From positions 8,246,001 through 8,310,000 of the forward strand of contig OZ024763.1 in the NCBI GenBank assembly GCA_964016885.1: DNA of 64,000 nucleotides, read 5' to 3'. Under the pieces are notes generated by a model. It was not told where the DNA came from. It saw only the letters and a program-made list of their open reading frames with translations, and did not search any database. Positions 18,405-60,371 of the stretch are shown here, one piece after another (position 1 is the first letter of the stretch; every line of letters starts with the position of its first letter). This stretch comes from Eledone cirrhosa (taxonomy: Eukaryota). Both the position numbers and the translations under genes were made by a program.

Positions 18405-18582
18405 ATGGCAAACCAAGGTTTGGCAGAAGAATTTTCCTACTTGTCTGTGGAAGACATGAGGAAACCTCCCACACCAACACCAAAGCTTCCTCCAGCTTTA
18501 CAACCCCGCCAACGTAGTGTTGACCAATCACAGATCTCCGTCACATCTCCCCACAACTCTCATCCACAGACTTACAGAGCAG
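18405..18582 (+). CDS. LPP: LPP/zyxin-family protein, coding exon 1
   Basis: Acceptor TTTCAG at 18367, ATG 18405 (MANQGLAEEF...), phase-1 donor at 18583 that joins in frame to exon 2. Confidence 0.7.
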
Positions 18583-18985: not shown

Positions 18986-19780
18986 TACCTGCCATCTACC
19001 GGCCATCTTTGAGACCTGACGAAGAACTGCCTCCCCCTCCTATGATGTCTAGTATGAACCCTCGTTACCCTGACGACAACTTCCCCCCACCCCCTCCTCT
19101 CCTACCGCCCCTGCCTCCCACCGCGTCCGAGCTCTCCCACGTTCCTTTCTACGGTAACCGTAACGACGGCTACAACCTGCCTCCACCGCCCCCACCGGTC
19201 GAGCACGACTACGCCACCGCCGCCGTGTCGCACGCCACCGCCACACCCACCGTCTACGCCCCGCCCCCTCCCCCGCCCGCCAGCTACCAGGTCCACCCTG
19301 GCTACAGCGTTGGCGGCAGCAGCTACAACTCTCGGTCAGTTCCGGTGACGGCTCCGTCTTCGACCGGGTCCTCCACCCCGTCACACTACCCCCCACGCCG
19401 TGACTTGAACCAGTCGAACTACATGAACCACACTGACCTGCCACCCCCTCCACCGCCGGCCCCCACCCAGACCATCGTGCCAAACTACTCCAATGTCCAC
19501 ACTACCACCAGTAGTGGCGGCAGCGGTGTTGTTGGACTCAGTTCTTCACAACCCCTCAACTACAAAACAGCCGGTCAAGGCAGCCCACAGCAACATAAAT
19601 ACCCGGGTTACTCAGATGCGGTCAGCTCTGCTCCGGCCACTGCCAGTCCACCGGGCAGCTACACTACAAACTCACTGCCTCGGTCAGATGGCCGGAAAGT
19701 TGGTAAAGAAGCTGAAGTAGACGCCTTGACCAGTTTACTAATGCAAAATATTGAATCTGCTGGTGACCCAGACTTCTTTG
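18986..19780 (+). CDS. LPP: LPP/zyxin-family exon 2: proline-rich region with FPPPP/LPPPP motifs and pre-LIM helix
   Basis: DDNFPPPPP, EAEVDALTSLLMQNIESAGDPDFFG; TTTCAG acceptor and GTAAGT donor, phase 1. Confidence 0.92.
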
Positions 19781-20947: not shown

Positions 20948-21049
20948 GAATGTGTTCCAAATGTGGCCACCGTGTCGTAGGTCAGAGTAACGGATGCACA
21001 GCCATGGATCAAGTATTCCACATTGACTGTTTTGTCTGTGACAGTTGTG
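20948..21049 (+). CDS. LPP: LPP exon 3: N-terminal part of LIM1
   Basis: GMCSKCGHRVVGQSNGCTAMDQVFHIDCFVCDSCG; AG/GT, phase 1-1. Confidence 0.95.
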
Positions 21050-26941: not shown

Positions 26942-29669
26942 TATCATCATCATCATTTGTCTATTCATCTTCTCTGTTAGTAAGGGCTGGACAGGTTTTT
27001 GTCATCGACACGACACATTGAATACTTTAATGTGGCTACAGCCCTCTCAGGCAGGCTGGAGGGGCTAGGCTGCATTTGTGTTGAGTGGGGGGCAATGTGA
27101 AATGGAAGTGTTTGTTGTGGGGTCAAGTCCTGTTTCAGGGTTTGAACTCACAACATTATGATACTAAACTAAACACCCTAATCATTAGGCCATGAGCCTT
27201 TACCCTTCATTGGGTTTATGCTTGTTGTTGTTGTTGTTGAAGAAGTGGTCATTTCCATCTTTTGCCCAGCCACAAAGAAAAAGCCCCCCGCCCCCTCCTA
27301 TAATGACGTAAAATAAAAAAACCCAAACATACCTCTCTCTTGTTGGCACAGTGAAGGAGGTGAAGTGCCTTGAACCACACACCACCCCACCCCACACCCA
27401 CCACACACCACCACCCCCATCAACCCAACCCCCCCACCATCAATACCACCACACACCACCACCAACACCACCACCACCACCACCACCACCACCACCACCA
27501 CCATCAACACCACCACCATCAACACCACCATCACCACCACCACCAACACCACCATCAACACCATCAACACCACCACCACCATCAACACCACCACCACCAT
27601 CAACACCACCACCACCACCACCACCATCAACACCACCACCACCAACACCACCAACACCACCATCAATACCACCACCACCCCCACCGGATGTTATGTTATG
27701 CGATAGTGGTTGATGTAGTTAGTTCTATTGATGTTATATATGTGTAGGAAACACACTCACACACACACATACATATACACATACACACACATAAGCATAA
27801 TGAGTATATACACACATACACTCTCACACATACATGACACATACACATAACCATAATAAATATGAGACTGACATATATACACTCACATACACACATACAT
27901 GCACGTCACACACACGCGCGCGCGCAGATATATACATCAGAGACTCTTACACATACACGACACACACATACACCTTACACACACTCACACACGTTACACT
28001 TACACACATATACATCACACACAGTTTCAGAGAGAAGCTAGTGTTAGTGAGAATAAGACTGACAGAGGGAGATGACTGCTATGTGACACTTATTGAGTAC
28101 TACAGCTACAACAACAACAACCACAACAAACACAGCCACAACTACAACCACAACATCAACAACAACAGTCACGACAACCACAGCTACAACTGTGACAACA
28201 ACCAACAGCACCACAACATCCGACACAACCACAGCTACTAGCGACAACAACAACTACCACCACAACAACTACAGCCACCACAACAACCAACATAACCACA
28301 ACAGTGACAACAACAACATCAACAGTAACAACAACCACAACAAGTAGCAACACAGAAGATGACAGTAAGTTACAAAATTACTCGTCACACAGTCTACTAC
28401 ACTTGATGCTAGCTTTTTCTCTATTGTATTAACTAATATTATCTAGTTTGGCAGATTCTAGGGTCCCTTTTTGTGGTGAAAGATTGACTGGGTTATATCT
28501 AGTTTGGCAGATTCTGGGGTCCCTTTTTGTGGTGAAAGATTGACTGGGTTATATCTAGTTTGGCAGATTAATAAGTATTTTGGTAGATACTGAGATCACA
28601 CTTTGAGATGACACCGGGTAGCAGATAGTTTTGTTGGTAGATTGAAGCGGGGTCCTTTTTATGATGAGCTGACATGGGATAACATGTAGTTTGTTTGGTA
28701 GATTCCGGGTCTTTCTGTGTGTGTATAACACTGGTAACATCGAGTTTTATAAATCCTGAGGGTCATTCCTGGGTTTTATTCCGAGGGGTGACATTAGTGA
28801 TAAGTACTTCAATGGTCAGGTCTCAGGGAGAGGTTTTTCTATGAATTTTTGTCACTGGTAACATATATTCTGGTAGCCAGGTCTCAGTAAGATATATTTT
28901 GGTAGTTTCTGGGATCTGTTCTGTGTGGTGGGGTCGATACTGGATAACAGTTAGTCGCGTTGTTAGATCCTCGGGCTTTTCTGGGTAACAATTATTTTAG
29001 TAGGACATTTTTTTATGAAGGCTTCACTAGTGACAGGGACTTGTGGTCAACTCCGACCGTTCCCGTTTTGCACTGCCCCACCTTATCTCATCTCCCATAC
29101 CGGATGTAACTGAATACTGATATAGTTTCATTCTTTCTGTCTGTCTGTCTCCTGATCTGACCGTGTGTCCAGCCCCTGGGTCAGTCACGTTGGACAGTCA
29201 ATGGCATGGAGATTTTTCTATAGCCGTGGCCGTGGTCCAACAGATCAGTTTAAAGTGTGTGTTGGATGTGGGAGGGGAAGAAACACCCTCTCCTCCTTTC
29301 CCTCCCCCTCTCGTTCAGTTGTGGGTCCACACAGGATTGACATTGGAGACTGGGGATGTGTGATAGTGAGTGAGTCACGCGGAAATTGAAGTCCTGTACT
29401 ACTACCACTACTACTACTACTACCACCACTACCACTACCACCACCACCACCACCACCACCACTACTACTACTACTACCACTACTACCACTACCACCACCA
29501 CTACTACTGGATTTCTGGATTTTATCATTACCAACCACACTAACAACAACAGTAACAACAACACATTCACCACAGTAACAACAACAACCACACTAACAAC
29601 AATAACAATAGTAACAACAAGAACAAGAAGTGTTTTAATGATCCAAGCCTCAAACAAAACCATTCCAAG

Positions 29670-32600
29670 ATGGCACTAAACTGTGCCATGATGAATATCA
29701 TAAATATGGAATCTCTGGCAGACTGGAAGTATCGTTATATTTTCTGCTACCAGGACTTCATTAGCAAGATGCTAGTTCTTCACGCTGTTGAGTCGAAGAA
29801 GCCACAACACATCGCAACAATCCTCCATGATGTTCTGCATCTCGTTGACTTCCCCAGTGTCATCAGAAGCGAGAGTGGTCACGTGTTTGTGACACGAGTT
29901 CTCCAAGAGATGAGAATCTGGTGGCCGACCTGTAGCTCGGGGCTAAATTCTTCCATGCAACAGGACGACAGGTTGAATTACCCACAAAACAAACAAGAAG
30001 ACGAAGACAAAGAAGAAGAGAAAGAAAAAGAGGATAGAAGCGATGGTAACGATAATGACAATATGATAGACAATGTGTATGTCTTGGAAAGTCTGAAGCG
30101 TTGGATGATACAACACAACAGCAGCAACTGGAGTCTGGGGGTAAAGCTTGTTCAATTCCAAGAGAATTCTATCAACCAAACAGCAGACATAGACTTTGTG
30201 TCATCCAATAAACTTCTCACAGAACTCGCTGGCATTTACATGCCATTTGAGTGCCTGAAAAGTTTAAAAAGCAGTGACGAGTTAAACCAGATTTTGTGCA
30301 GGACTCTCACTACAGGCATTGAGGATTTACAATCACAGCTAGGAGTTTCTCCTAAAAGGAGTACTGCATGTTGCAAGCTGGTGACCGCTGCCGCGAAACC
30401 CCATGGAAAGCTTACAAATCGTTGTGTGGCTGATAAGAAATTCCAGTTTGAAAGAAATGCGACACATTCTGATTTATTGACTTCTGTCTACCATGGTAGA
30501 AAACCTCATCATGTTGTGACTGATGAGTCTTCAGCTGAAGAAACTTTGCCAAAGTCCAGACTCAGTGGGTCTGTATCTAAAGACAGAGTTTTATCACTTG
30601 AGACCCTCGGAGATTCATCTAATTCAGATTCCCAGGTAACAGGAACTACTAAATCTCAATCGGACATTTCTACAGGAAATGACGTACCTGGAAAACCGAG
30701 CACGGAAATTCTAGATCCTTCTTCTGGTGGCTCTGACACTCACCTTCATCTTCATCATCATCATCAATATCCTCCCCATCCCCCTCATCTTCCTCACCCC
30801 CAGCAACAGCAGCAGTTCGGACGCTTGTCGGAAGTCCTTAACGACACTGGAGGAAGCCATTACCGATATGACTCGGCTAAATGCGTGCGTGACATCATCC
30901 AGTTCATGGAACTACAGCCCTACCGTCACAGTAACAACCTCATACCTTTGATTGTCGAGAAAAAGTCTAAAGATCAACCCTCAGGTGATACGGAAAATAA
31001 TTCTTCCTACGACAGAAACTGTGAACCTTGTGTAACAGCAGGTGAACCTATATCTGAAATACGGACTAAGATAACCACCACACTTACTGCAGAAACTTGT
31101 AACAAGCCACACCGTGCTGCTGACCAGGGCAACAGGAGTTTCACCCCGGATTATACTCACATCTCCCTGAGTGATACAGCCTCTCATTCCACCAACTTGG
31201 ACACTGGTCAGTCTTCACTTGATATCAAAGTCGATAACGAAACACCTGCTGATGCTCTGTTTGATGTACCTGGCACAGATATACAGACAGTGCTGCATGT
31301 GCAGGAAACACCAGCACCTGCTTACGTGTCAAACGAAGGTGAAATTACTTGCAGAAAGGACTTTACCGAAGATGCTCTCAGCTGCGTAGAAAGTGTATCA
31401 AAACATGCAGAAGATACATTAAACTACAGAGGGGGTTTTTCAACTGACACACCTGTTAATGAACTTACTTGTGAGTCAGGGAACTTTGAGGAACCTTATT
31501 TTGTTTACAGGACCAACAGAAGGACTGGGAACAACTTCATTTCCTTAATTCGGAGCTCAAGTTTAACTGAAATCAACAGTCCGATGTTGTGCACCTCTGT
31601 ACCCTCCTGCAAGATTGTTGCACCTTACTGTACAGCTGAAATACAGAGTCCTGGTGATCCGGCCACTGTTGAACCTGAAACGGAATATCCCACATCGAGT
31701 GGGATGTTGGACACCTGTTCTGTGAAGAGTCCAGTGTCAAGGCCACAACTTCCCAGAATACTGGACAGCAACAGCTATTCCTCTGCAAGATGTCCAGCAT
31801 CAAGGCCACAACTTCCCGCAATTTTGGACATTAACCATTCTGAGAGATGTCCAGCATCAAGGCCACAACTTGACACAATTTTGGACACTAACCATTCTGA
31901 AACAAGTCCAGTATCAAAGCCACAACTTGACACAATTTTGGACACTAACCATTCTGAAAGGAGTCCAGCATCAAAGCCACAAACTCCAGGAAAATTCCAG
32001 GATTCGAAGTGCTTGCTTAAAGTCCAGGATATTATAAGGAAGTTGGAAATATCCAGCTCCAGTTGCTCAGAATGTGAGGACTTTACAAAGAACAGGAAAA
32101 TCCCGGAGAGGGCCGCCAATATCGGGAATATCATAAAAAGATTGGAATCATTTGCAGGACCTCATCCGAAATGGAGAACTTTGAGAATAATTGGCCAGAG
32201 CTGTGAGGACTTGAATAAGCTTGACCAGGACTGTAATGCAGGTGATGTGGGGTCAGTTGGAGGGTCAGAAGAGTTGGAAAATACTTTGTCAGTGGACGAA
32301 GACGAAGATAAAGACTGCGAGGAAGAAGAGCCTCAGTATGTCTTACCTGTGAGTCAGCAGCTGGACACTGACCTTGTCTTGAACCTTGATGACCAGTCAC
32401 TGACCTCACCTGACCATGGATCTTTAACACGGGACAATTCCTACCAATTAACTCTGACCACAGACATTAACGATGATGGTGATGGTGATACTTATAGATA
32501 TGATGGTGATGGTTGGGATAAATATGATGGGGATGGGGATTGTGGTCAATATAAAGTAAAAAATGATGATGATGATAATGATTGTAATGTCGATGTTATT

Positions 32601-33804
32601 AATATTAATGAGAGTTCCGATAATGTAGATGATGATGATGATGATGAGGGAAAAGAAAACCATCCCAAAATGCGTCACTTTTCCAGTAGTTCAACCTTGA
32701 AACTTTCTGAGTTGGAGGATGAACTCAGCTCTTTCCCAAGTATCCCAGGATACGAGGACAACAACAACTATGATAATGATGAGACGAGGGTGGACGATGA
32801 TGATGATGATGATGCTTTTACTTATACCGAAGACTTGGACCATCGTATAAACAACGTGATATTCCGCTTGAAGTCAGAATCCGAAATCTCCGATTGCTTG
32901 GATGATGAAGATTCTGATGACTTTTCTGAAGATGGTGGGTCCAAGAACTCAACTTGTGGCAATGATGGTGACACTTCGGTCTCGCTGGATAAAACAGGTT
33001 TCTATGGAAATGAGCCGGGTGACGAAGACGACCAAGAGGACCCTGTAACCCCTACCAACATCAACACACCCTTGTATTTTGCGAACAAGCTCCGTACTTC
33101 TCCTGCCTGTTACAACCTCAACTCCTACATCTCAACGAGTTATTTGTGCAATGGCAGCAGAGATGGTACTCATATCAAACGTAACATCTGTGAAAGTGTT
33201 GAAGAAGTTTCAAACAACCTAGAGCCGTCCCTCAACGAAGTTTCATCAAGTTTATCTTCCGCCCTCAACGTAAAACACAGCTCCTTAAAACGTGTCGGCA
33301 GCAATGTGGGTTCGAGTTCCATCTCTAGCGGACGGGAGTGTTCAGCGAGGCCACAGTCCAGCACATTTTCCAGTGTCTTCAGCATCGCCCAAGCCACCCG
33401 AGCGACCCAAGCTCCTACGTGGTACGTCCCTTCTTACGAAAACCCGAAACAGACGACAAAAGCAGACGAAGGCCAGCTTAGCGAAATGTCTTTTCTGACG
33501 GACATCGAACAGAAAATAAAACAGGCTTTGCAGGAACTTGAGGCTGTGGATCTTTGCCATTACCAGTCCTTCGATAACCTCTGCCCGAGGCCAGTATTAT
33601 ACAGTGGAGGCAATGTCAGGGAAAAATCAGAATTTATTTCAATTTCTCAGTGTAAACAATGCGAATGTGATGATGCATCATACTGTCGCAGTTGCAACTG
33701 TGTTCTGCAGGATCAGTGTTACATCTTTTGTCCTCTCTGCCAATTCTTAAACAAACGGATCGTCGGAACTCAGGAACAATTCCATTATCAGGTTTATGAG
33801 AAAA
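29670..33804 (+). CDS. Large nested coding exon: degenerate KRBA2/SCAND3-like integrase domain, long acidic/disordered region and Cys-rich end; probable alternative first coding exon of the LPP locus
   Basis: 4.1-kb stop-free, non-microsatellite ORF (open to 33941); good start context CCAAGATGG; in-frame stop upstream at 29553; donor A|GTAAGG at 33804/33805 followed by low-complexity TTTCA repeats. Confidence 0.75.
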
Positions 33805-34269
33805 GTAAGGAATATCTTTCATCTCCTTTTGTTTTTCATTTCACCTCATTTCATTGCATTTTCCTCTCATTTCATCTAATTTCATCTCATCTCATTTCAC
33901 CTCATTTTCATCTCATTTCATCTCGCCTCATTTTCATCTAATTTCATTTCACCTCATTTTCATCTCATTTTCACCTCATTTTCATTTCATCTCATTTCAT
34001 CTAATTTCATTTCATCTCATTTTCATCTAATTTCATTGCATTTTTTCTTTCTTCTTCTTCATGTAGTTGTTCTCACTTTCCTTGTTCAAATTATTGTTTC
34101 TAATAATAATTGTTTCTACCTTTGGCACAAGGCCAGCAATCACCCAGTACATTACTGGTACTTTATTTTATCATAATAATGATTTCATTTATTGGCCACA
34201 AGGGCCGACATGTAGGGGACAATACAAAGACAGGGACAGTGGGGGAGTTTACATATACAACAATAGACA

Positions 34270-35100
34270 CCACTACCACCACCACCACCACCACCAACAA
34301 CAACACCACTACCACCACCACCACTACTACTACCACCACCAACAACAACACCACTACCACCACCACCACTACTACTACCACCACCAACAACAACACCACT
34401 ACCACCACCACCACTACTACTACCACCACCAACAACACCACTACCACCACCACTACTACTACCACCACCACCAACAACAACACCACTACCACCACCAACA
34501 ACAACAACACCACCACCACAACCACCACCACTACCACCACCACCACCACCCATCACCACCACTACCACCACCACTACCACCCATCACCACAACTACCACC
34601 ACCACCACCAACAACAACACCACCACCACCACTACTACTACCACCACCACAACTACCACCACCACCAACAACAACAACACCAACACCACCACCACCACCA
34701 CCACAACTACCACCACCACCAACAACAACACCACCACCACCACCACTACTACTACCACCACCACCAACAACAACACCACTACCACTACCACAACTACCAC
34801 CACCACCAACAACAACAACAACACCAACACCACCACCACCACTACCACCACCACCACCACCACCACTACCACCACCACCACCACCACCACCCATCACCAC
34901 CACTACCACCACCACCACTACTACCACCCATCACCACCACCACTACCACCACCACCACCACCACCACTACCACCACCACCACCACCACCACCCATCACCA
35001 CCACTACCACCACCACCACTACTACCACCCATCACCACCACCACCACCACCACCACCACCACTACCACCATCACCACCACCACCCACCACCAACACCATC
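34270..35100. repeat. (CAC/CAA/TAC)n trinucleotide block
   Basis: Directly visible. Confidence 0.9.
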
Positions 35101-35719
35101 TTTGTCATTGTACATCACAAGTGAGTTTATATTAAATAAACAATTATGAATTTATATTTCCCACAGACACAAAAACAGGCATACTGACACACTGACACAC
35201 GCACACACACACGCACACACACACACACGCACACACACACACACACACACGCACACGCGCACACACACGCACACGCACACGCACACGCACACGCACGCAC
35301 ACACACACACAGCCAAATACACAGGCACACAGCCAAATACACAGGCACACATAGACAGACACAGGCACACATAGACAGACACACACACACAGAGACACAC
35401 AAATTTGACAATGGTTATGCTATATTAGAAAGATAAAAGGATATGGTGCTAGCATCAAAGACATGTCAACCCTCCCTAGTGTTGGTGCCACACACAGTCG
35501 GGAGGACCCTTCAGTTGGGTCAACACCAAACCCCTAACACCCACTATGTCATGACAGCAGCAGGGGCCCCTTACAACAAGCTCTATCAGTAGTTCAAGGT
35601 CCCAGGAAATGATGCTATACTACATATAACTAATTAACTCTATAATAATGAGGTTATGTATCTGATGAGTTAATTAGTTACTAATACACTGCACTCAACA
35701 TACAGCGGATGTCTAAAAC

Positions 35720-40824: not shown

Positions 40825-41395
40825 ACAGACTACATCACACCACACACCACACCACACTACACTACACCACACATCACATCACACCACACCACACCACACT
40901 ACACTACACTACACTACACCACACACCACATCACACCACACCACACCACACCACACTACACTACACACCACACCACACTACACTACACTACACCACACAC
41001 CACATCACACCACACCACACCACACCACACTACACCACACCACACCACACCACACTACACTACACACCACACCACTACACTACACTACACTACACCACAC
41101 ACCACACCACACCACACCACACCACACCACACCACACCACACTACACTACACACCACACCACACCACACTACACACCACACTACACTACACTACACTACA
41201 CCACACACCACACACCACACCACACCACACCACACCACACCACACCACACTACACTACACTACACTACACTACACTACACTACACTACACACCACACCAC
41301 ACTACACTACACTACACTACACACCACACCACACTACACTACACTACACTACACACCACACTACACTACACTACACACCACACCACACCACACCA
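40825..41395. repeat. (CACAC/CTACA)n pentanucleotide array
   Basis: Directly visible. Confidence 0.9.
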
Positions 41396-41446
41396 GGCAC
41401 AATACCAGTAATTATCCACTAACTCTCTCTCTCTCTCCATTTCCAG

Positions 41447-41514
41447 GGACCATCCTCCGTGGTAAATCATTCTATGCTATTGAGACCAAACCATATTGTG
41501 AATCTTGTTATGTT
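41447..41514 (+). CDS. LPP: LPP exon 4: C-terminal part of LIM1
   Basis: (G)TILRGKSFYAIETKPYCESCYV; TTCCAG acceptor, phase-1 start, GTAAGT donor. Confidence 0.93.
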
Positions 41515-41888
41515 GTAAGTATTCTTTCTCTACTGCTCTACTGCCTCTCTACTCTTCTTTCTATTGCTTCTCTACTTTTCTTTCTACTGCTCCTGTACTG
41601 CTCTATCTACTGTTTCTCTACTGCTCTATTTTACCACTATTGCTTCCCTACTGTTCTTCCACTGCTTCCCTGCTGTTCTTCCACTGCTGCTATACTTTTC
41701 CTTCACTGCTTTGATACACTTCTTCCACTGCTCCGCTGCTGATTTTCTACTGCTTCCCTACTGTTCTTCCACTACAACCATATAAAACCTCCATCATTGA
41801 CTCAAGTTCCCTGTAGTTGTTGTTGTTACTGTTGTGTTCCTTCCCCAAGATTAATATGTTCTCTCTGTCTCTTTTCTTCTTTTTACAG

Positions 41889-41936
41889 AACACTCTTGAA
41901 AAATGTTCAGTTTGTTCGAAACCTGTTATTGACCGA
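41889..41936 (+). CDS. LPP: LPP exon 5: start of LIM2
   Basis: NTLEKCSVCSKPVIDR; AG/GT. Confidence 0.93.
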
Positions 41937-42012
41937 GTAAGTGTTGTTGTTGTTGTTGTTGTTGTGGAGGTGTGGCAACAAAATAGTTAAGTTGATAGAG
42001 GGAATGAGGCAT

Positions 42013-42562: not shown

Positions 42563-42693
42563 TTGTTGAGAGCGACAGGTAAACCATACCACCCTTCCTG
42601 TTTTACCTGTGTGGTATGTGGTAAAAGTCTTGATGGAGTACCTTTCACAGTTGACGCCACTAACCAGATCCACTGCATTGACGACTTTCACAA
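42563..42693 (+). CDS. LPP: LPP exon 6: LIM2
   Basis: [44 protein letters not shown]. Confidence 0.96.
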
Positions 42694-42752: not shown

Positions 42753-45317
42753 AGAACACTCAGTCTATAGGACAAGTTTAGTATAATTAGTTACAACAGT
42801 GACATCTACAGGTAGAACACTCAGTCTATAGGACAAGTTTAGTATAATTAGTAACAACAGTGACATCTACAGGTAGAACACTCAGTCTATAGGACAAGTT
42901 TAGTATAATTAGTTACAACAGTGACATCTACAGGTAGAACACTCAGTCTATAGGACAAGTTTAGTATAATTAGTTACAACAGTGACATCTACAGGTAGAA
43001 CGCTCAGTCTATAGGACAAGTTTAGTATAATTAGTTACAACAGTGACATCTACAGGTAGAACACTCAGTCTATAGGACAAGTTTAGTATAATTAGTTACA
43101 ACTGTGACATCTACAGGTAGAACACTCAGTCTATAGGACAAGTTTAGTATAATTAGTTACAACAGTGACATCTACAGGTAGAACGCTCAGTCTATAGGAC
43201 AAGTTTAGTATAATTAGTTACAACAGTGACATCTACAGGTAGAACACTCAGTCTATAGGACAAGTTTAGTATAATTAGTTACAACAGTGACATCTACAGG
43301 TAGAACGCTCAGTCTATAGGACAAGTTTAGTATAATTAGTTACAACAGTGACATCTACAGGTAGAACACTCAGTCTATAGGACAAGTTTAGTATAATTAG
43401 TTACAACAGTGACATCTACAGGTAGAACGCTCAGTCTATAGGACAAGTTTAGTATAATTAGTTACAACAGTGACATCTACAGGTAGAACGCTCAGTCTAT
43501 AGGACAAGTTTAGTATAATTAGTTACAACAGTGACATCTACAGGTAGAACACTCAGTCTATAGGACAAGTTTAGTATAATTAGTTACAACAGTGACATCT
43601 ACAGGTAGAACGCTCAGTCTATACGACAAGTTTAGTATAATTAGTTACAACAGTGACATCTACAGGTAGAACACTCAGTCTATAGGACAAGTTTAGTATA
43701 ATTAGTTACAACAGTGACATCTACAGGTAGAACACTCAGTCTATAGGACAAGTTTAGTATAATTAGTTACAACAGTGACATCTACAGGTAGAACACTCAG
43801 TCTATAGGACAAGTTTAGTATAATTAGTAACAACAGTGACATCTACAGGTAGAACACTCAGTCTATAGGACAAGTTTAGTATAATTAGTTACAACAGTGA
43901 CATCTACAGGTAGAACGCTCAGTCTATAGGACAAGTTTAGTATAATTAGTTACAACAGTGACATCTACAGGTAGAACACTCAGTCTATAGGACAAGTTTA
44001 GTATAATTAGTTACAACTGTGACATCTACAGGTAGAACACTCAGTCTATAGGACAAGTTTAGTATAATTAGTTACAACAGTGACATCTACAGGTAGAACG
44101 CTCAGTCTATAGGACAAGTTTAGTATAATTAGTTACAACAGTGACATCTACAGGTAGAACACTCAGTCTATAGGACAAGTTTAGTATAATTAGTTACAAC
44201 AGTGACATCTACAGGTAGAACGCTCAGTCTATAGGACAAGTTTAGTATAATTAGTTACAACAGTGACATCTACAGGTAGAACACTCAGTCTATAGGACAA
44301 GTTTAGTATAATTAGTTACAACAGTGACATCTACAGGTAGAACGCTCAGTCTATAGGACAAGTTTAGTATAATTAGTTACAACAGTGACATCTACAGGTA
44401 GAACGCTCAGTCTATAGGACAAGTTTAGTATAATTAGTTACAACAGTGACATCTACAGGTAGAACACTCAGTCTATAGGACAAGTTTAGTATAATTAGTT
44501 ACAACAGTGACATCTACAGGTAGAACGCTCAGTCTATACGACAAGTTTAGTATAATTAGTTATAACAGTGACATCTACAGGTAGAACACTCAGTCTATAG
44601 GACAAGTTTAGTATAATTAGTTACAACAGTGACATCTACAGGTAGAACACTCAGTCTATAGGACAAGTTTAGTATAATTAGTTACAACAGTGACATCTAC
44701 AGGTAGAACACTCAGTCTATAGGACAAGTTTAGTATAATTAGTTACAACAGTGACATCTACAGGTAGAACACTCAGTCTATAGGACAAGTTTAGTATAAT
44801 TAGTTACAACAGTGACATCTACAGGTAGAACACTCAGTCTATAGGACAAGTTTAGTATAATTAGTTACAACAGTGACATCTACAGGTAGAACACTCAGTC
44901 TATAGGACAAGTTTAGTATAATTAGTTACAACAGTGACATCTACAGGTAGAACACTCAGTCTATAGGACAAGTTTAGTATAATTAGTAACAACAGTGACA
45001 TCTACAGGTAGAACACTCAGTCTATAGGACAAGTTTAGTATAATTAGTTACAACAGTGACATCTACAGGTAGAACACTCAGTCTATAGGACAAGTTTAGT
45101 ATAATTAGTTACAACAGTGACATCTACAGGTAGAACACTCAGTCTATAGGACAAGTTTAGTATAATTAGTTACAACAGTGACATCTACAGGTAGAACACT
45201 CAGTCTATAGGACAAGTTTAGTATAATTAGTTACAACAGTGACATCTACAGGTAGAACACTCAGTCTATAGGACAAGTTTAGTATAATTAGTAACAACAG
45301 TGACATCTACAGGTAGA
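42753..45317. repeat. 61-bp tandem satellite (~42 near-identical copies)
   Basis: Unit AGAACACTCAGTCTATAGGACAAGTTTAGTATAATTAGTTACAACAGTGACATCTACAGGT. Confidence 0.97.
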
Positions 45318-46114: not shown

Positions 46115-46235
46115 AAAATTTGCCCCTCGCTGTTGTGTGTGTCAACTTCCCATTATGCCCGACCCTGGTAAGGAGGAGACAGTACGCGTGGTAGCTATGG
46201 ACAGGAGCTTCCATGTGCACTGCTACTGTTGCGAG
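46115..46235 (+). CDS. LPP: LPP exon 7: first part of LIM3
   Basis: [40 protein letters not shown]. Confidence 0.96.
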
Positions 46236-47279: not shown

Positions 47280-47411
47280 GATTGCGGTATGCCATTATCA
47301 TCTGAGGCCGAGGGTCGAGGCTGTTACCCTCTTGATGAACACGTACTCTGCAAAATCTGCAATGCCAAGCGCATTCAGGCACTCACCACCAAAATGACCA
47401 CCGAACTGTGA
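47280..47411 (+). CDS. LPP: LPP exon 8: end of LIM3 and PDZ-binding-type C-terminus
   Basis: DCGMPLSSEAEGRGCYPLDEHVLCKICNAKRIQALTTKMTTEL-stop. Confidence 0.96.
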   Translation, partial: DCGMPLSSEAEGRGCYPLDEHVLCKICNAKRIQALTTKMTTEL

Positions 47412-59541: not shown

Positions 59542-60258
59542 GTGAGTCAGAACACATCGTTACATTATCACTGTGTAACATTGTCACTGTGTCACATAGT
59601 CACTGTGTCACAAACTCACATAGTCACTGTGTCACTTAGTCACATTGTCATATAGTCAGTGTCACATTGCCACATAATCACTGAGTCACTGTGTCACATC
59701 CACGGCTGGATTTAATGGAGTACAAAGGGGTCCCTCTGCTGTGAAAGTGCTCTGCCTGGTGGTTAGGGTGTTAGGTTCATGATTGTAATGTTGTGATTCC
59801 TTAAGCAAGACACTTTATTTCACAGAGCTCCATTCCACTGCTGGACTTCCATGAAGCACCTTGTCTAGATTTGTGTCTTTGGGCTAGGGATAGGGTGCAA
59901 AGCCCATCCATGGTCTCTCATAACCAATGGGGGCTTCTAGAGAGAGAGACACACACATACATACATAGATACACACACATCATCATCATCATCTTCATTT
60001 TACGTCCGCTTTTCCCTGCTTGCAAGGGTGGGACGGGTCCTATTCAGCACAGCATCTCTCCATTTGTCACGGTCCTTTGTCATCTCCTCTGTGAGCTTCA
60101 GCGATGTGAGGTCAGTTTTCACCACCTCCACCCATGTTTTCCGTGGTCTTCCTGTACTGCATCTTCCTTCTACTGGCATTTCTACACATATATATATATA
60201 TATACATACACACACACACCACCTTATCTCATCTATGTATATTTGTGTTATTTTTCAG

Positions 60259-60371
60259 ATGCTGAAGAACCAGAAGAACCCCGGATTCTTGGCCTTGCTA
60301 TGGTCCCTGGTCACCACATTGTCAGCCTACATGTTGATGATTGTAAAGCCCTTAGCCCCGAAATCATGTAA
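60259..60371 (+). CDS. NAA38: NAA38 exon 4
   Basis: EEPRILGLAMVPGHHIVSLHVD...M-stop. Confidence 0.95.

Follow-up and report, generated by a model that had tools for sequence, protein, structure and literature searches.

The window analysed here, a stretch of 64,000 nucleotides of Eledone cirrhosa (assembly GCA_964016885.1, contig OZ024763.1, positions 8,246,001 to 8,310,000 of the forward strand), contains a gene of the zyxin/LPP family and, inside the third intron of this gene and on the same strand, a long stop-free frame that we call exon X. An initial annotation of the locus had read this frame as a domesticated, catalytically dead integrase exon spliced to the LIM exons of its host. Our comparisons indicate that exon X is almost certainly a domesticated coding exon, and it is no longer a GINGER2 element.

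The host gene and the open frame in its third intron

The host gene comprises eight coding exons with GT-AG ends at every intron, and the join of exons 1-8 translates into a canonical protein of 524 amino acids (aa) without internal stops. Its exons lie in the window as follows:

18405..18582, + strand: exon 1, canonical start; matches the start of the canonical relatives P0170 and P0171 and is present in a retrocopy
18986..19780, + strand: exon 2, proline-rich, with four [FL]PPPP (VASP/EVH1-type) motifs; not in the predicted fusion isoform
20948..21049, + strand: exon 3, LIM1 zinc ligands 1-6, phase-1 end; not in the predicted fusion isoform
41447..41514, + strand: exon 4, rest of LIM1 with its two final zinc ligands, common to the canonical and the predicted fusion isoform
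41889..41936, + strand: exon 5, start of LIM2
42563..42693, + strand: exon 6, LIM2
46115..46235, + strand: exon 7, LIM3
47280..47411, + strand: exon 8, rest of LIM3 followed by TTEL (class I PDZ-type tail) and the stop codon

The canonical isoform has a proline-rich N-terminus with four [FL]PPPP motifs, followed by three LIM domains; its tail is of the class I PDZ type. Canonical proteins were found in other species too. TRIP6 is the best solved-structure match of the cephalopod-like canonical relative P0170. We use "LPP" as the label given in the initial annotation; the comparison with the vertebrate paralogues covers this match of P0170 to the TRIP6 structure. A processed pseudogene on C8 (25330148-25331261; L081:867-1980) carries exons 1-8 without introns, including the join of exon 3 to exon 4, at 76-94% identity by piece and with internal deletions. 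Since this retrocopy joins exons 1-8, the canonical message is real in this lineage. The search of the own genome revealed no retrocopy of an exon X-exon 4 join; DNA of exon 4 matched at two places, the gene itself and the canonical retrocopy.

Two further observations concern the host gene and its relatives. Intron 6 holds a near-perfect tandem array of ~2.5 kb with a unit of ~60 bp (window 42760-45300), and a second LIM gene of the genome (L082, C3:118722633-118722758) shows 57% identity to exon 6. This second gene is probably an Ajuba/LIMD1/WTIP-type paralogue.

Intron 3 is 20.4 kb long (21050-41446) and interrupts LIM1 in phase 1. Within it, the open frame is defined by these features:

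29670..33804, + strand: exon X, almost certainly a domesticated coding exon, single-copy, with 1,378 codons and one extra base; predicted to act as an alternative first coding exon
33805..33810, + strand: phase-1 splice donor GTAAGG (AAA/GTAAGG); the 13 residues before the junction are identical in Octopus sinensis
29319..29365, + strand: weak candidate exon of 47 nt, followed by GTGAGT at 29366; possible exon of the 5' untranslated region, or in-frame bridge from exon 3 to the phase-0 acceptors 29670/29754

The frame is open from 29556 to a stop at 33941 (1,461 codons from stop to stop), whereas the other five frames contain 57-138 stops each. An open run of 1,378 codons has a chance probability of ~4e-36 at the local base composition, and apart from exon 2 of the host gene the list of open reading frames (ORFs) of the window holds no other long non-repeat frame. 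The first ATG past the last upstream stop, AAG-ATG-G in its context, is located at 29670. No promoter was located, and around 29000 the CpG ratios show nothing unusual. Exon X and exon 3 end alike in phase 1, and exon X joined to exons 4-8 reads through 1,544 aa without an internal stop, about three times the canonical length, so that coordinates, phase and length had been given correctly in the initial annotation.

Ancestry, conservation and architecture of exon X

Near the start of exon X lies the only part with demonstrable transposon ancestry:

29685..30359, + strand: GINGER2/KRBA2-type integrase core with the helical part that follows it (aa 6-230)

With the first 260 residues of exon X as query, 307 proteins matched at E<=0.001. 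Ten of these were looked up, and the named ones are KRBA2-like proteins, human SCAND3, or integrase/THAP proteins. Human SCAND3 (P0069) matches the core with an E-value of 3e-8, and the KRBA2/SCAND3 group is traced to GINGER2 transposons in the account of PMC3575427. A GINGER2-like profile built from 13 relatives (461 positions) matches exon X over profile positions 149-375, at 1e-26 in O. sinensis and at 2e-18 plus 4e-9 in the window. In trees, both octopus sequences are placed among the GINGER2-like rows and apart from the LTR-like (long terminal repeat) integrases of the own genome; of the 30 GINGER2-like proteins chosen and the 59 integrase loci of the own genome, the first tree included 21 and 18, respectively, and the second one 15 and 7. 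The octopus pair shows a long stem (1.6-2.4) and short tips (0.08-0.19), a pattern that suggests rapid divergence following the capture and constraint from then on. The structure predicted for aa 1-240 reaches a mean predicted local distance difference test score (pLDDT) of 78 and matches the integrase cores of foamy virus and other retroviruses. A comparison with the atlas called the core rve-like at 0.90 on few shared features, which we treat as a lead only, and gave no usable match for the motif block. Pfam had no match for the whole ORF and only sub-threshold, unrelated matches for its parts. Together, these comparisons support a DNA transposase of the GINGER2/KRBA2/SCAND3 type, and not an LTR integrase, as the probable donor.

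The residues needed for catalysis have been replaced, in agreement with the earlier view of a dead enzyme. Both aspartates of QVDLID are Asn in both species (29694-29696 and 29703-29705), and the aspartate of SDNG is Glu in both (29871-29873), a position held by Asp in 88 of the 113 relatives (out of 149 listed) that the alignment took in. The third catalytic motif (RxxQxQGSVER) is overwritten in both species by an acidic insertion, which could supply a Glu only through a chance of the alignment. We assume the identity of the catalytic aspartates from retroviral integrases. Exon X contains no intact DDE triad. Pfam showed no N-terminal H2C2 finger, and in the six frames of intron 3 the profile of 461 positions had no match ahead of its position 149. 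The many copies with terminal inverted repeats (TIRs) that would mark a young element were likewise not seen: exon X gave a single match per search of its own 3.0-Gb genome (counts are lower bounds), no long TIR pair (50-180 bp) flanks the ORF in 27900-34300 according to the 25 longest of 84 inverted pairs, and no element ends, which in GINGER2 carry TGTNR and a 4-bp target duplication, were found.

Some other loci and proteins with integrase-like cores deserve mention in their own right. Outside exon X, the genome's best GINGER2-like match is a decayed relic that contains 15 stops and matches in two frames (L034, C2:96157594-96158151, minus strand). Three proteins (P0005, P0009, P0032) contain several GINGER2-like cores in tandem, in which the catalytic motifs are replaced, and are apparently other domestications of the same group; two of them are named from beetles and have a THAP-like domain at the start. 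Genome-wide, at least 150 integrase-core matches exceed the Pfam cut-off, many of them in open frames of ~1,000 codons and with equal scores, which suggests young LTR-element families.

The genes of this region resemble those of O. sinensis. The whole ORF as query retrieved one protein from 7,999 scored candidates, isoform X2 of O. sinensis LOC115224746, which has a LIM domain and whose protein cluster also contains isoform X1. The RefSeq models XP_029651497.1 and XP_036369609.1 hold the orthologue of exon X, followed by the junction VYEK-R-TILRGKSF that the initial annotation had predicted. Both proteins (P0001, P0002) read HYQVYEKRTILRGKSFYA at this site, identical to the window join, and both end in TTEL; over exons 4-8, 162 of 165 residues agree between window and models. 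Both models begin at exon X, 12 residues ahead of the matching Met, and neither contains the canonical LPP N-terminus, while isoforms X1 and X2 differ by 72 residues within exon X. Alternative isoforms in the NCBI pipeline presumably derive from aligned transcripts, which would imply RNA over exon X in O. sinensis.

The alignment of exon X with its orthologue stays in one frame throughout despite 43 gap openings, with 680 of 1,171 aligned residues identical (58%). When neutral substitution to 58% identity was simulated 300 times, no run gave fewer than 18 stops. Identity is unevenly distributed: the integrase core shows 71/90 and 85/98 identical residues (79-87%), the block aa 775-850 has 65/76 and the tail 84/128, with all 13 residues at its very end in agreement, whereas the linkers reach 39-44%. 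Because the blocks are 79-87% identical between the species as compared to ~43% for the linkers, and the orthologue is open, the proposed domestication can hardly be doubted, and exon X is under purifying selection as judged at the protein level from block conservation and the open frame. A more distant fragment of 353 aa (P0004) is 58% identical over aa 138-227 and has the first of the helix motifs described below; a cephalopod-wide age of exon X is only suggested. Scans of viral, prokaryote-genome and metagenome contigs gave no relatives of exon X (89, 23 and 107 pattern matches, respectively).

The term integrase exon used in the initial annotation fits the core, which is present, but does not fit the exon as a whole, as a transposon origin can be demonstrated for only ~230 of its 1,378 residues. 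Another stretch of about 1,100 residues is rich in Ser, Asp and Thr and lacks a family match. The features beyond the core are as follows:

30426..30452, + strand: VADKKFQFE (aa 253-261), unchanged in O. sinensis; agrees with the F-actin motif in V, F and E, but has Lys at position 4
30885..30911, + strand: helix motif 1, VRDIIQFME (aa 406-414), common to O. sinensis and P0004
31725..31982, + strand: in-frame tandem repeat with 4.4 copies of a 57-bp unit, not present in O. sinensis
31992..32219, + strand: conserved block aa 775-850 (65/76 identical) with helix motifs 2 and 3
32022-32048, + strand: helix motif 2, VQDIIRKLE
32121-32147, + strand: helix motif 3, IGNIIKRLE
33651..33740, + strand: cysteine cluster of three CxxC pairs, possibly the C-terminal zinc finger of the transposase

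The 57-bp repeat indicates that large in-frame gains are tolerated. Helix motifs 1-3 recur at matching places in O. sinensis and share the 1-4-8-9 spacing of the F-actin motif VxxLxxxFE, with V/V/I at position 1, I/I/I at position 4 and E/E/E at position 9 in both species. The relaxed pattern [VI]xx[LI]xxx[FLM]E occurs three times per species; among 5,000 shuffles, 2 and 1 reached this number. None of 149 GINGER2-like relatives contains the strict helix pattern. The helices of exon X resemble the F-actin motif and are candidate binders, which we consider a lead at the level of motifs.

The cysteine tail was compared with the fingers of transposases. In GINGER2-like proteins a similar finger stands behind a variable linker (12/149 by strict pattern), and SCAND3 has the Pfam domain Znf_SCAND3. 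The linker measures 76-218 aa in 12 measurable relatives, and that of exon X is about five or more times longer. Znf_SCAND3 (PF23663, layout CxxC-CxxC-H-xx-C-CxxC) has no Pfam match on the tail, and the His is missing in the window. A finger profile of 13 relatives scored on the tails was equalled by 158 and 203 of 1,000 shuffles with bias correction, by 13 and 42 without it, and by 287 and 582 with cysteines fixed; one of six pairwise finger tests of the window tail gave 1/1,000. The spacing of the cysteines fits a finger, and the remaining residues add nothing significant, so that exon X may be one transposase stretched in its middle. An origin of the tail as a decayed duplicate of exon 3 fits less well and is unsupported (125-477 of 1,000 shuffles for protein, 218-984 for the LIM1 profile, 44 for DNA), and no such duplicate was found by tblastn. 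Contrary to this rejection, an all-LIM profile on the O. sinensis tail was equalled by 3 and 36 of 1,000 shuffles. The predicted tail structure (pLDDT 43) is uninformative.

The predicted fusion isoform and competing explanations

The frame and phase of exon X fit an in-frame join to exon 4, this join is present in the RefSeq models of another species, and the transposase domain lies on an exon separate from the host domains, as in known host-transposase fusions. The translated join bears out the earlier prediction of an isoform without the proline-rich N-terminus and half of LIM1 that keeps LIM2, LIM3 and TTEL. From these sequence data we consider it probable that the fusion isoform is made.

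We propose that a transposon inserted in sense orientation into intron 3 of a cephalopod ancestor and subsequently would have lost its ends and its H2C2 finger. The low-complexity linker of the transposase may then have grown to about 1,100 residues, and a GT just behind the cysteine cluster would have been recruited as donor. In the fusion isoform Pfam recognises two LIM stretches, compared to three in P0170, next to the orphan half of LIM1, and exon X is free of any [FL]PPPP motif. According to PMC546208, LPP binds VASP via its FP4 motifs and Scrib via its PDZ-type tail, and in mammalian zyxin the binding to strain sites is described to need three tandem LIM domains, while two bind weakly (10.1101/2020.03.06.980649; 10.1101/2020.03.06.979245). 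Since the fusion isoform would lack all four VASP-type motifs as well as the N-terminal half of LIM1, and only two LIM domains would be complete, VASP recruitment and most of the strain sensing would be lost. In turn, three or four short helices resembling VxxLxxxFE would be gained, and LIM2, LIM3 and the PDZ-type tail would still target the isoform to adhesion sites. Integrase cores often self-associate, and the dead core could serve as a folded, possibly self-associating head. Given the fusion, the sequence makes an actin-anchoring role an even bet, and that the isoform trades strain sensing for steady filament anchoring is conceivable but falls somewhat short of that.

Taken as a whole, the best explanation, with a probability of roughly 55%, is that a GINGER2-derived exon with replaced catalytic residues acts as alternative first coding exon to exon 4 and yields a 1,544-aa protein that is likely a steady actin anchor or cross-linker, not a strain-triggered repair protein. 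A bolder version appears doubtful to us: cephalopods might have rebuilt a mechanosensor, in that a whole GINGER2 transposase was stretched to a first exon of 1,378 residues with its own tandem F-actin helices, spliced into the middle of LIM1, and depending on the promoter chosen the gene would yield either a repair protein that is triggered by strain and recruits VASP or a filament cross-linker independent of force, perhaps in muscular hydrostat or skin, while the last CxxC pair might complete the orphan finger of LIM1.

Several observations weigh against our preferred explanation. Regarding the ancestry, an approximately unbiased (AU) test retained a placement outside the GINGER2-like rows (p 0.10), and the structure model was driven by a GINGER2-like alignment and is hence not independent of the sequence evidence. 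The relaxed helix pattern was defined after the sequence had been seen, and position 8 of the three helix motifs is Met, Leu and Leu, not Phe, although the Phe at this position is among the two most conserved positions of the F-actin motif as presented in PMC13364712. The junction rests on the gene model of a single other species: protein searches, which were insensitive (one scored 45 candidates and listed no octopus canonical isoform), found no junction-bearing proteins beyond the O. sinensis cluster, and P0001 and the fragment P0004 were the only relatives of exon X. On a matrix built from the seven other donors of the host gene, the donor at 33804 scores 4.1 bits versus 8.0-12.3 for those donors, and 106 of 1,263 GT sites of intron 3 score as high. 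Finally, the frame continues for 45 codons beyond the donor to 33941, which makes a stand-alone product possible.

Among the competing explanations a nuclear role ranks first, followed by a stand-alone nested gene and then by a cassette exon. The first of these accepts the fusion, but sees it as a nuclear or general scaffold, in which the dead integrase head binds DNA, chromatin or itself and LIM2-LIM3 form a platform for co-regulators, similar to HMGA2-LPP and MLL-LPP. LPP is reported to shuttle to the nucleus and its tumour fusions to be mainly nuclear (PMC546208), known host-transposase fusions are described as mostly transcriptional regulators (10.1101/2020.05.07.082677), and the integrase core is the most conserved part of exon X (79-87%). 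However, the six frames of intron 3 contain no H2C2 finger or other DNA-binding domain upstream of the core, the basic clusters of exon X are only short, with one (KNRK/KKNR) common to both species, and the three repeated helices would be left unexplained. We consider a nuclear function unlikely, yet the most serious competitor of the actin anchor.

It is less likely still that exon X is a nested single-exon gene with its own transcription that reads through to 33941 (1,423 aa from the ATG), with the RefSeq junction being a minor splice or a modelling join. The 45 open codons past the donor, the weak donor score and an ATTAAA at 35131 would fit such a gene, and SCAND3 and KRBA2 hold their whole GINGER2 domain on one exon according to PMC3575427. 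On the other hand, the read-through part enters a TCATT microsatellite, as does intron sequence across the window, the 13 residues before the junction are identical in a species with linkers of only ~43% identity, and both RefSeq isoforms use the junction. Two sequence runs covering the locus behave as DNA, with single contigs running unspliced through 41395-41960 and upstream of the ATG, and so carry no information on expression.

The initial annotation had noted no phase-compatible acceptor upstream of exon X. This was right for the 17 phase-1 AG sites in 29556-30200, all of which have no more than 12/20 pyrimidines, so that a direct splice from exon 3 into the ORF is unlikely, but a pyrimidine-rich AG at 29317-29318 (19/20 pyrimidines) had been missed. 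Exon X could then be an internal cassette, in which exon 3 is spliced to 29319-29365 and further to one of the phase-0 acceptors, 29670 or 29754, so that ~1,390 residues would come to lie in the middle of LIM1 of the full-length protein. While the 47 nt are free of stops in the needed frame and 29754 ranks 14th of 687 AG sites, on the gene's own matrices 29319 ranks only 72nd and 29670 581st of 687, and the donor at 29366 reaches 4.1 bits. If the small donor is not used, a join of exon 3 to 29319 runs into a stop after 23 codons, and both O. sinensis models start at exon X, which makes the cassette very improbable. A young or mobile transposon, or a chance open frame without a host role, has the transposase homology only in its favour and is practically dismissed by the single copy, the lack of TIRs, the replaced catalytic residues, the open and block-conserved orthologue in another species, and the decay of the sole other notable GINGER2-like match of this genome, a relic interrupted by 15 stops.

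Two observations from outside this gene may be added. On the minus strand of C3 (L065:1495-2625) there is an intronless, intact and divergent actin ORF of 376 aa with 76-79% identity to four other actin loci, a possible retrogene. In the window, a frame at 59805-60371 ends in EEPEEPRILGLAMVPGHHIVSLHVDD and looks like the last exon of an Sm-like (LSMD1/NAA38-type) gene.

Relation to known transposase fusions

The closest counterparts of exon X are SCAND3 (ZBED9) and KRBA2 of mammals, which are described as single-copy host genes in which one exon holds an integrase domain of GINGER2 origin, in fusion with domains of the host (PMC3575427). There, SCAN or KRAB comes first and a transposase with H2C2 finger follows, whereas exon X has the transposase first and the finger lost; the partner is SCAN or KRAB in the one case and cytoskeletal LIM in the other. 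SCAND3 also retains QVDLID and SDNG, both lost from exon X. SCAND3 and exon X occur in different parts of the tree, which points to independent capture. Exon X further resembles KRABINER, SETMAR and CSB-PGBD3, in which an intronic transposon was captured by alternative splicing, the parent transcript was kept and the transposase exon is conserved (10.1101/2020.05.07.082677). In these tetrapod fusions, as outlined in the same source, upstream host exons splice into the transposase and mostly DNA-binding domains are kept. In contrast, exon X would be a first exon with a donor that replaces the N-terminus of the host and half of a LIM domain.

Compared to GINGER2/Tdd elements as described in PMC2836005, exon X shares the integrase-like DDE core with the same surrounding motifs, the helical part next to it and possibly a C-terminal cysteine finger, but has no TIRs, no H2C2 finger and no intact DDE triad, is present in one copy and has a longer linker. 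The canonical isoform has the architecture of the zyxin/LPP/TRIP6 family, while the predicted fusion isoform lacks FPPPP/LPPPP motifs and keeps two whole LIM domains plus an orphan half. HMGA2-LPP and MLL-LPP also place a foreign N-terminal module before the LPP LIM domains, but these are somatic translocations with DNA-binding AT-hooks (PMC546208), whereas exon X is inherited, conserved and located within the gene. With the SFM actin-filament motif, a nine-residue helix that is hydrophobic at 1, 4 and 8, has Glu at 9 and lies in low-complexity surroundings (PMC13364712), the exon X helices agree except for Met/Leu instead of Phe at position 8 and for the three copies per chain, and their binding is a candidate property.

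The junction of exon X and exon 4 is already contained in RefSeq, uncharacterised. We found no description of a transposase-zyxin-type fusion in the literature searched, with most subscription journals outside this search. The main text of 10.1101/2020.05.07.082677 does not mention LIM, zyxin or integrase, although LIM could be among its 55 tabulated host domains, and the accessible part of a survey of transposon-derived factors that covers Octopus has no mention of Ginger (PMC10027918). New here are the three repeated helices resembling VxxLxxxFE and conserved in both species. The fusion differs from known ones in order, in the partner domain and in the LIM domain that is cut in half.

Transposase capture is known mainly for vertebrate transcription factors, where DNA-binding domains were placed behind host KRAB or SCAN. 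If our explanation is true, such capture would extend to an invertebrate gene of cytoskeletal mechanosensing, with the transposase first, with a catalytic core and not a DNA-binding domain as the source, and with a cut in the middle of a host domain. With a natural pair of two-LIM and three-LIM proteins from one locus, it would become possible to test under native conditions whether LIM strain sensing follows the avidity model.

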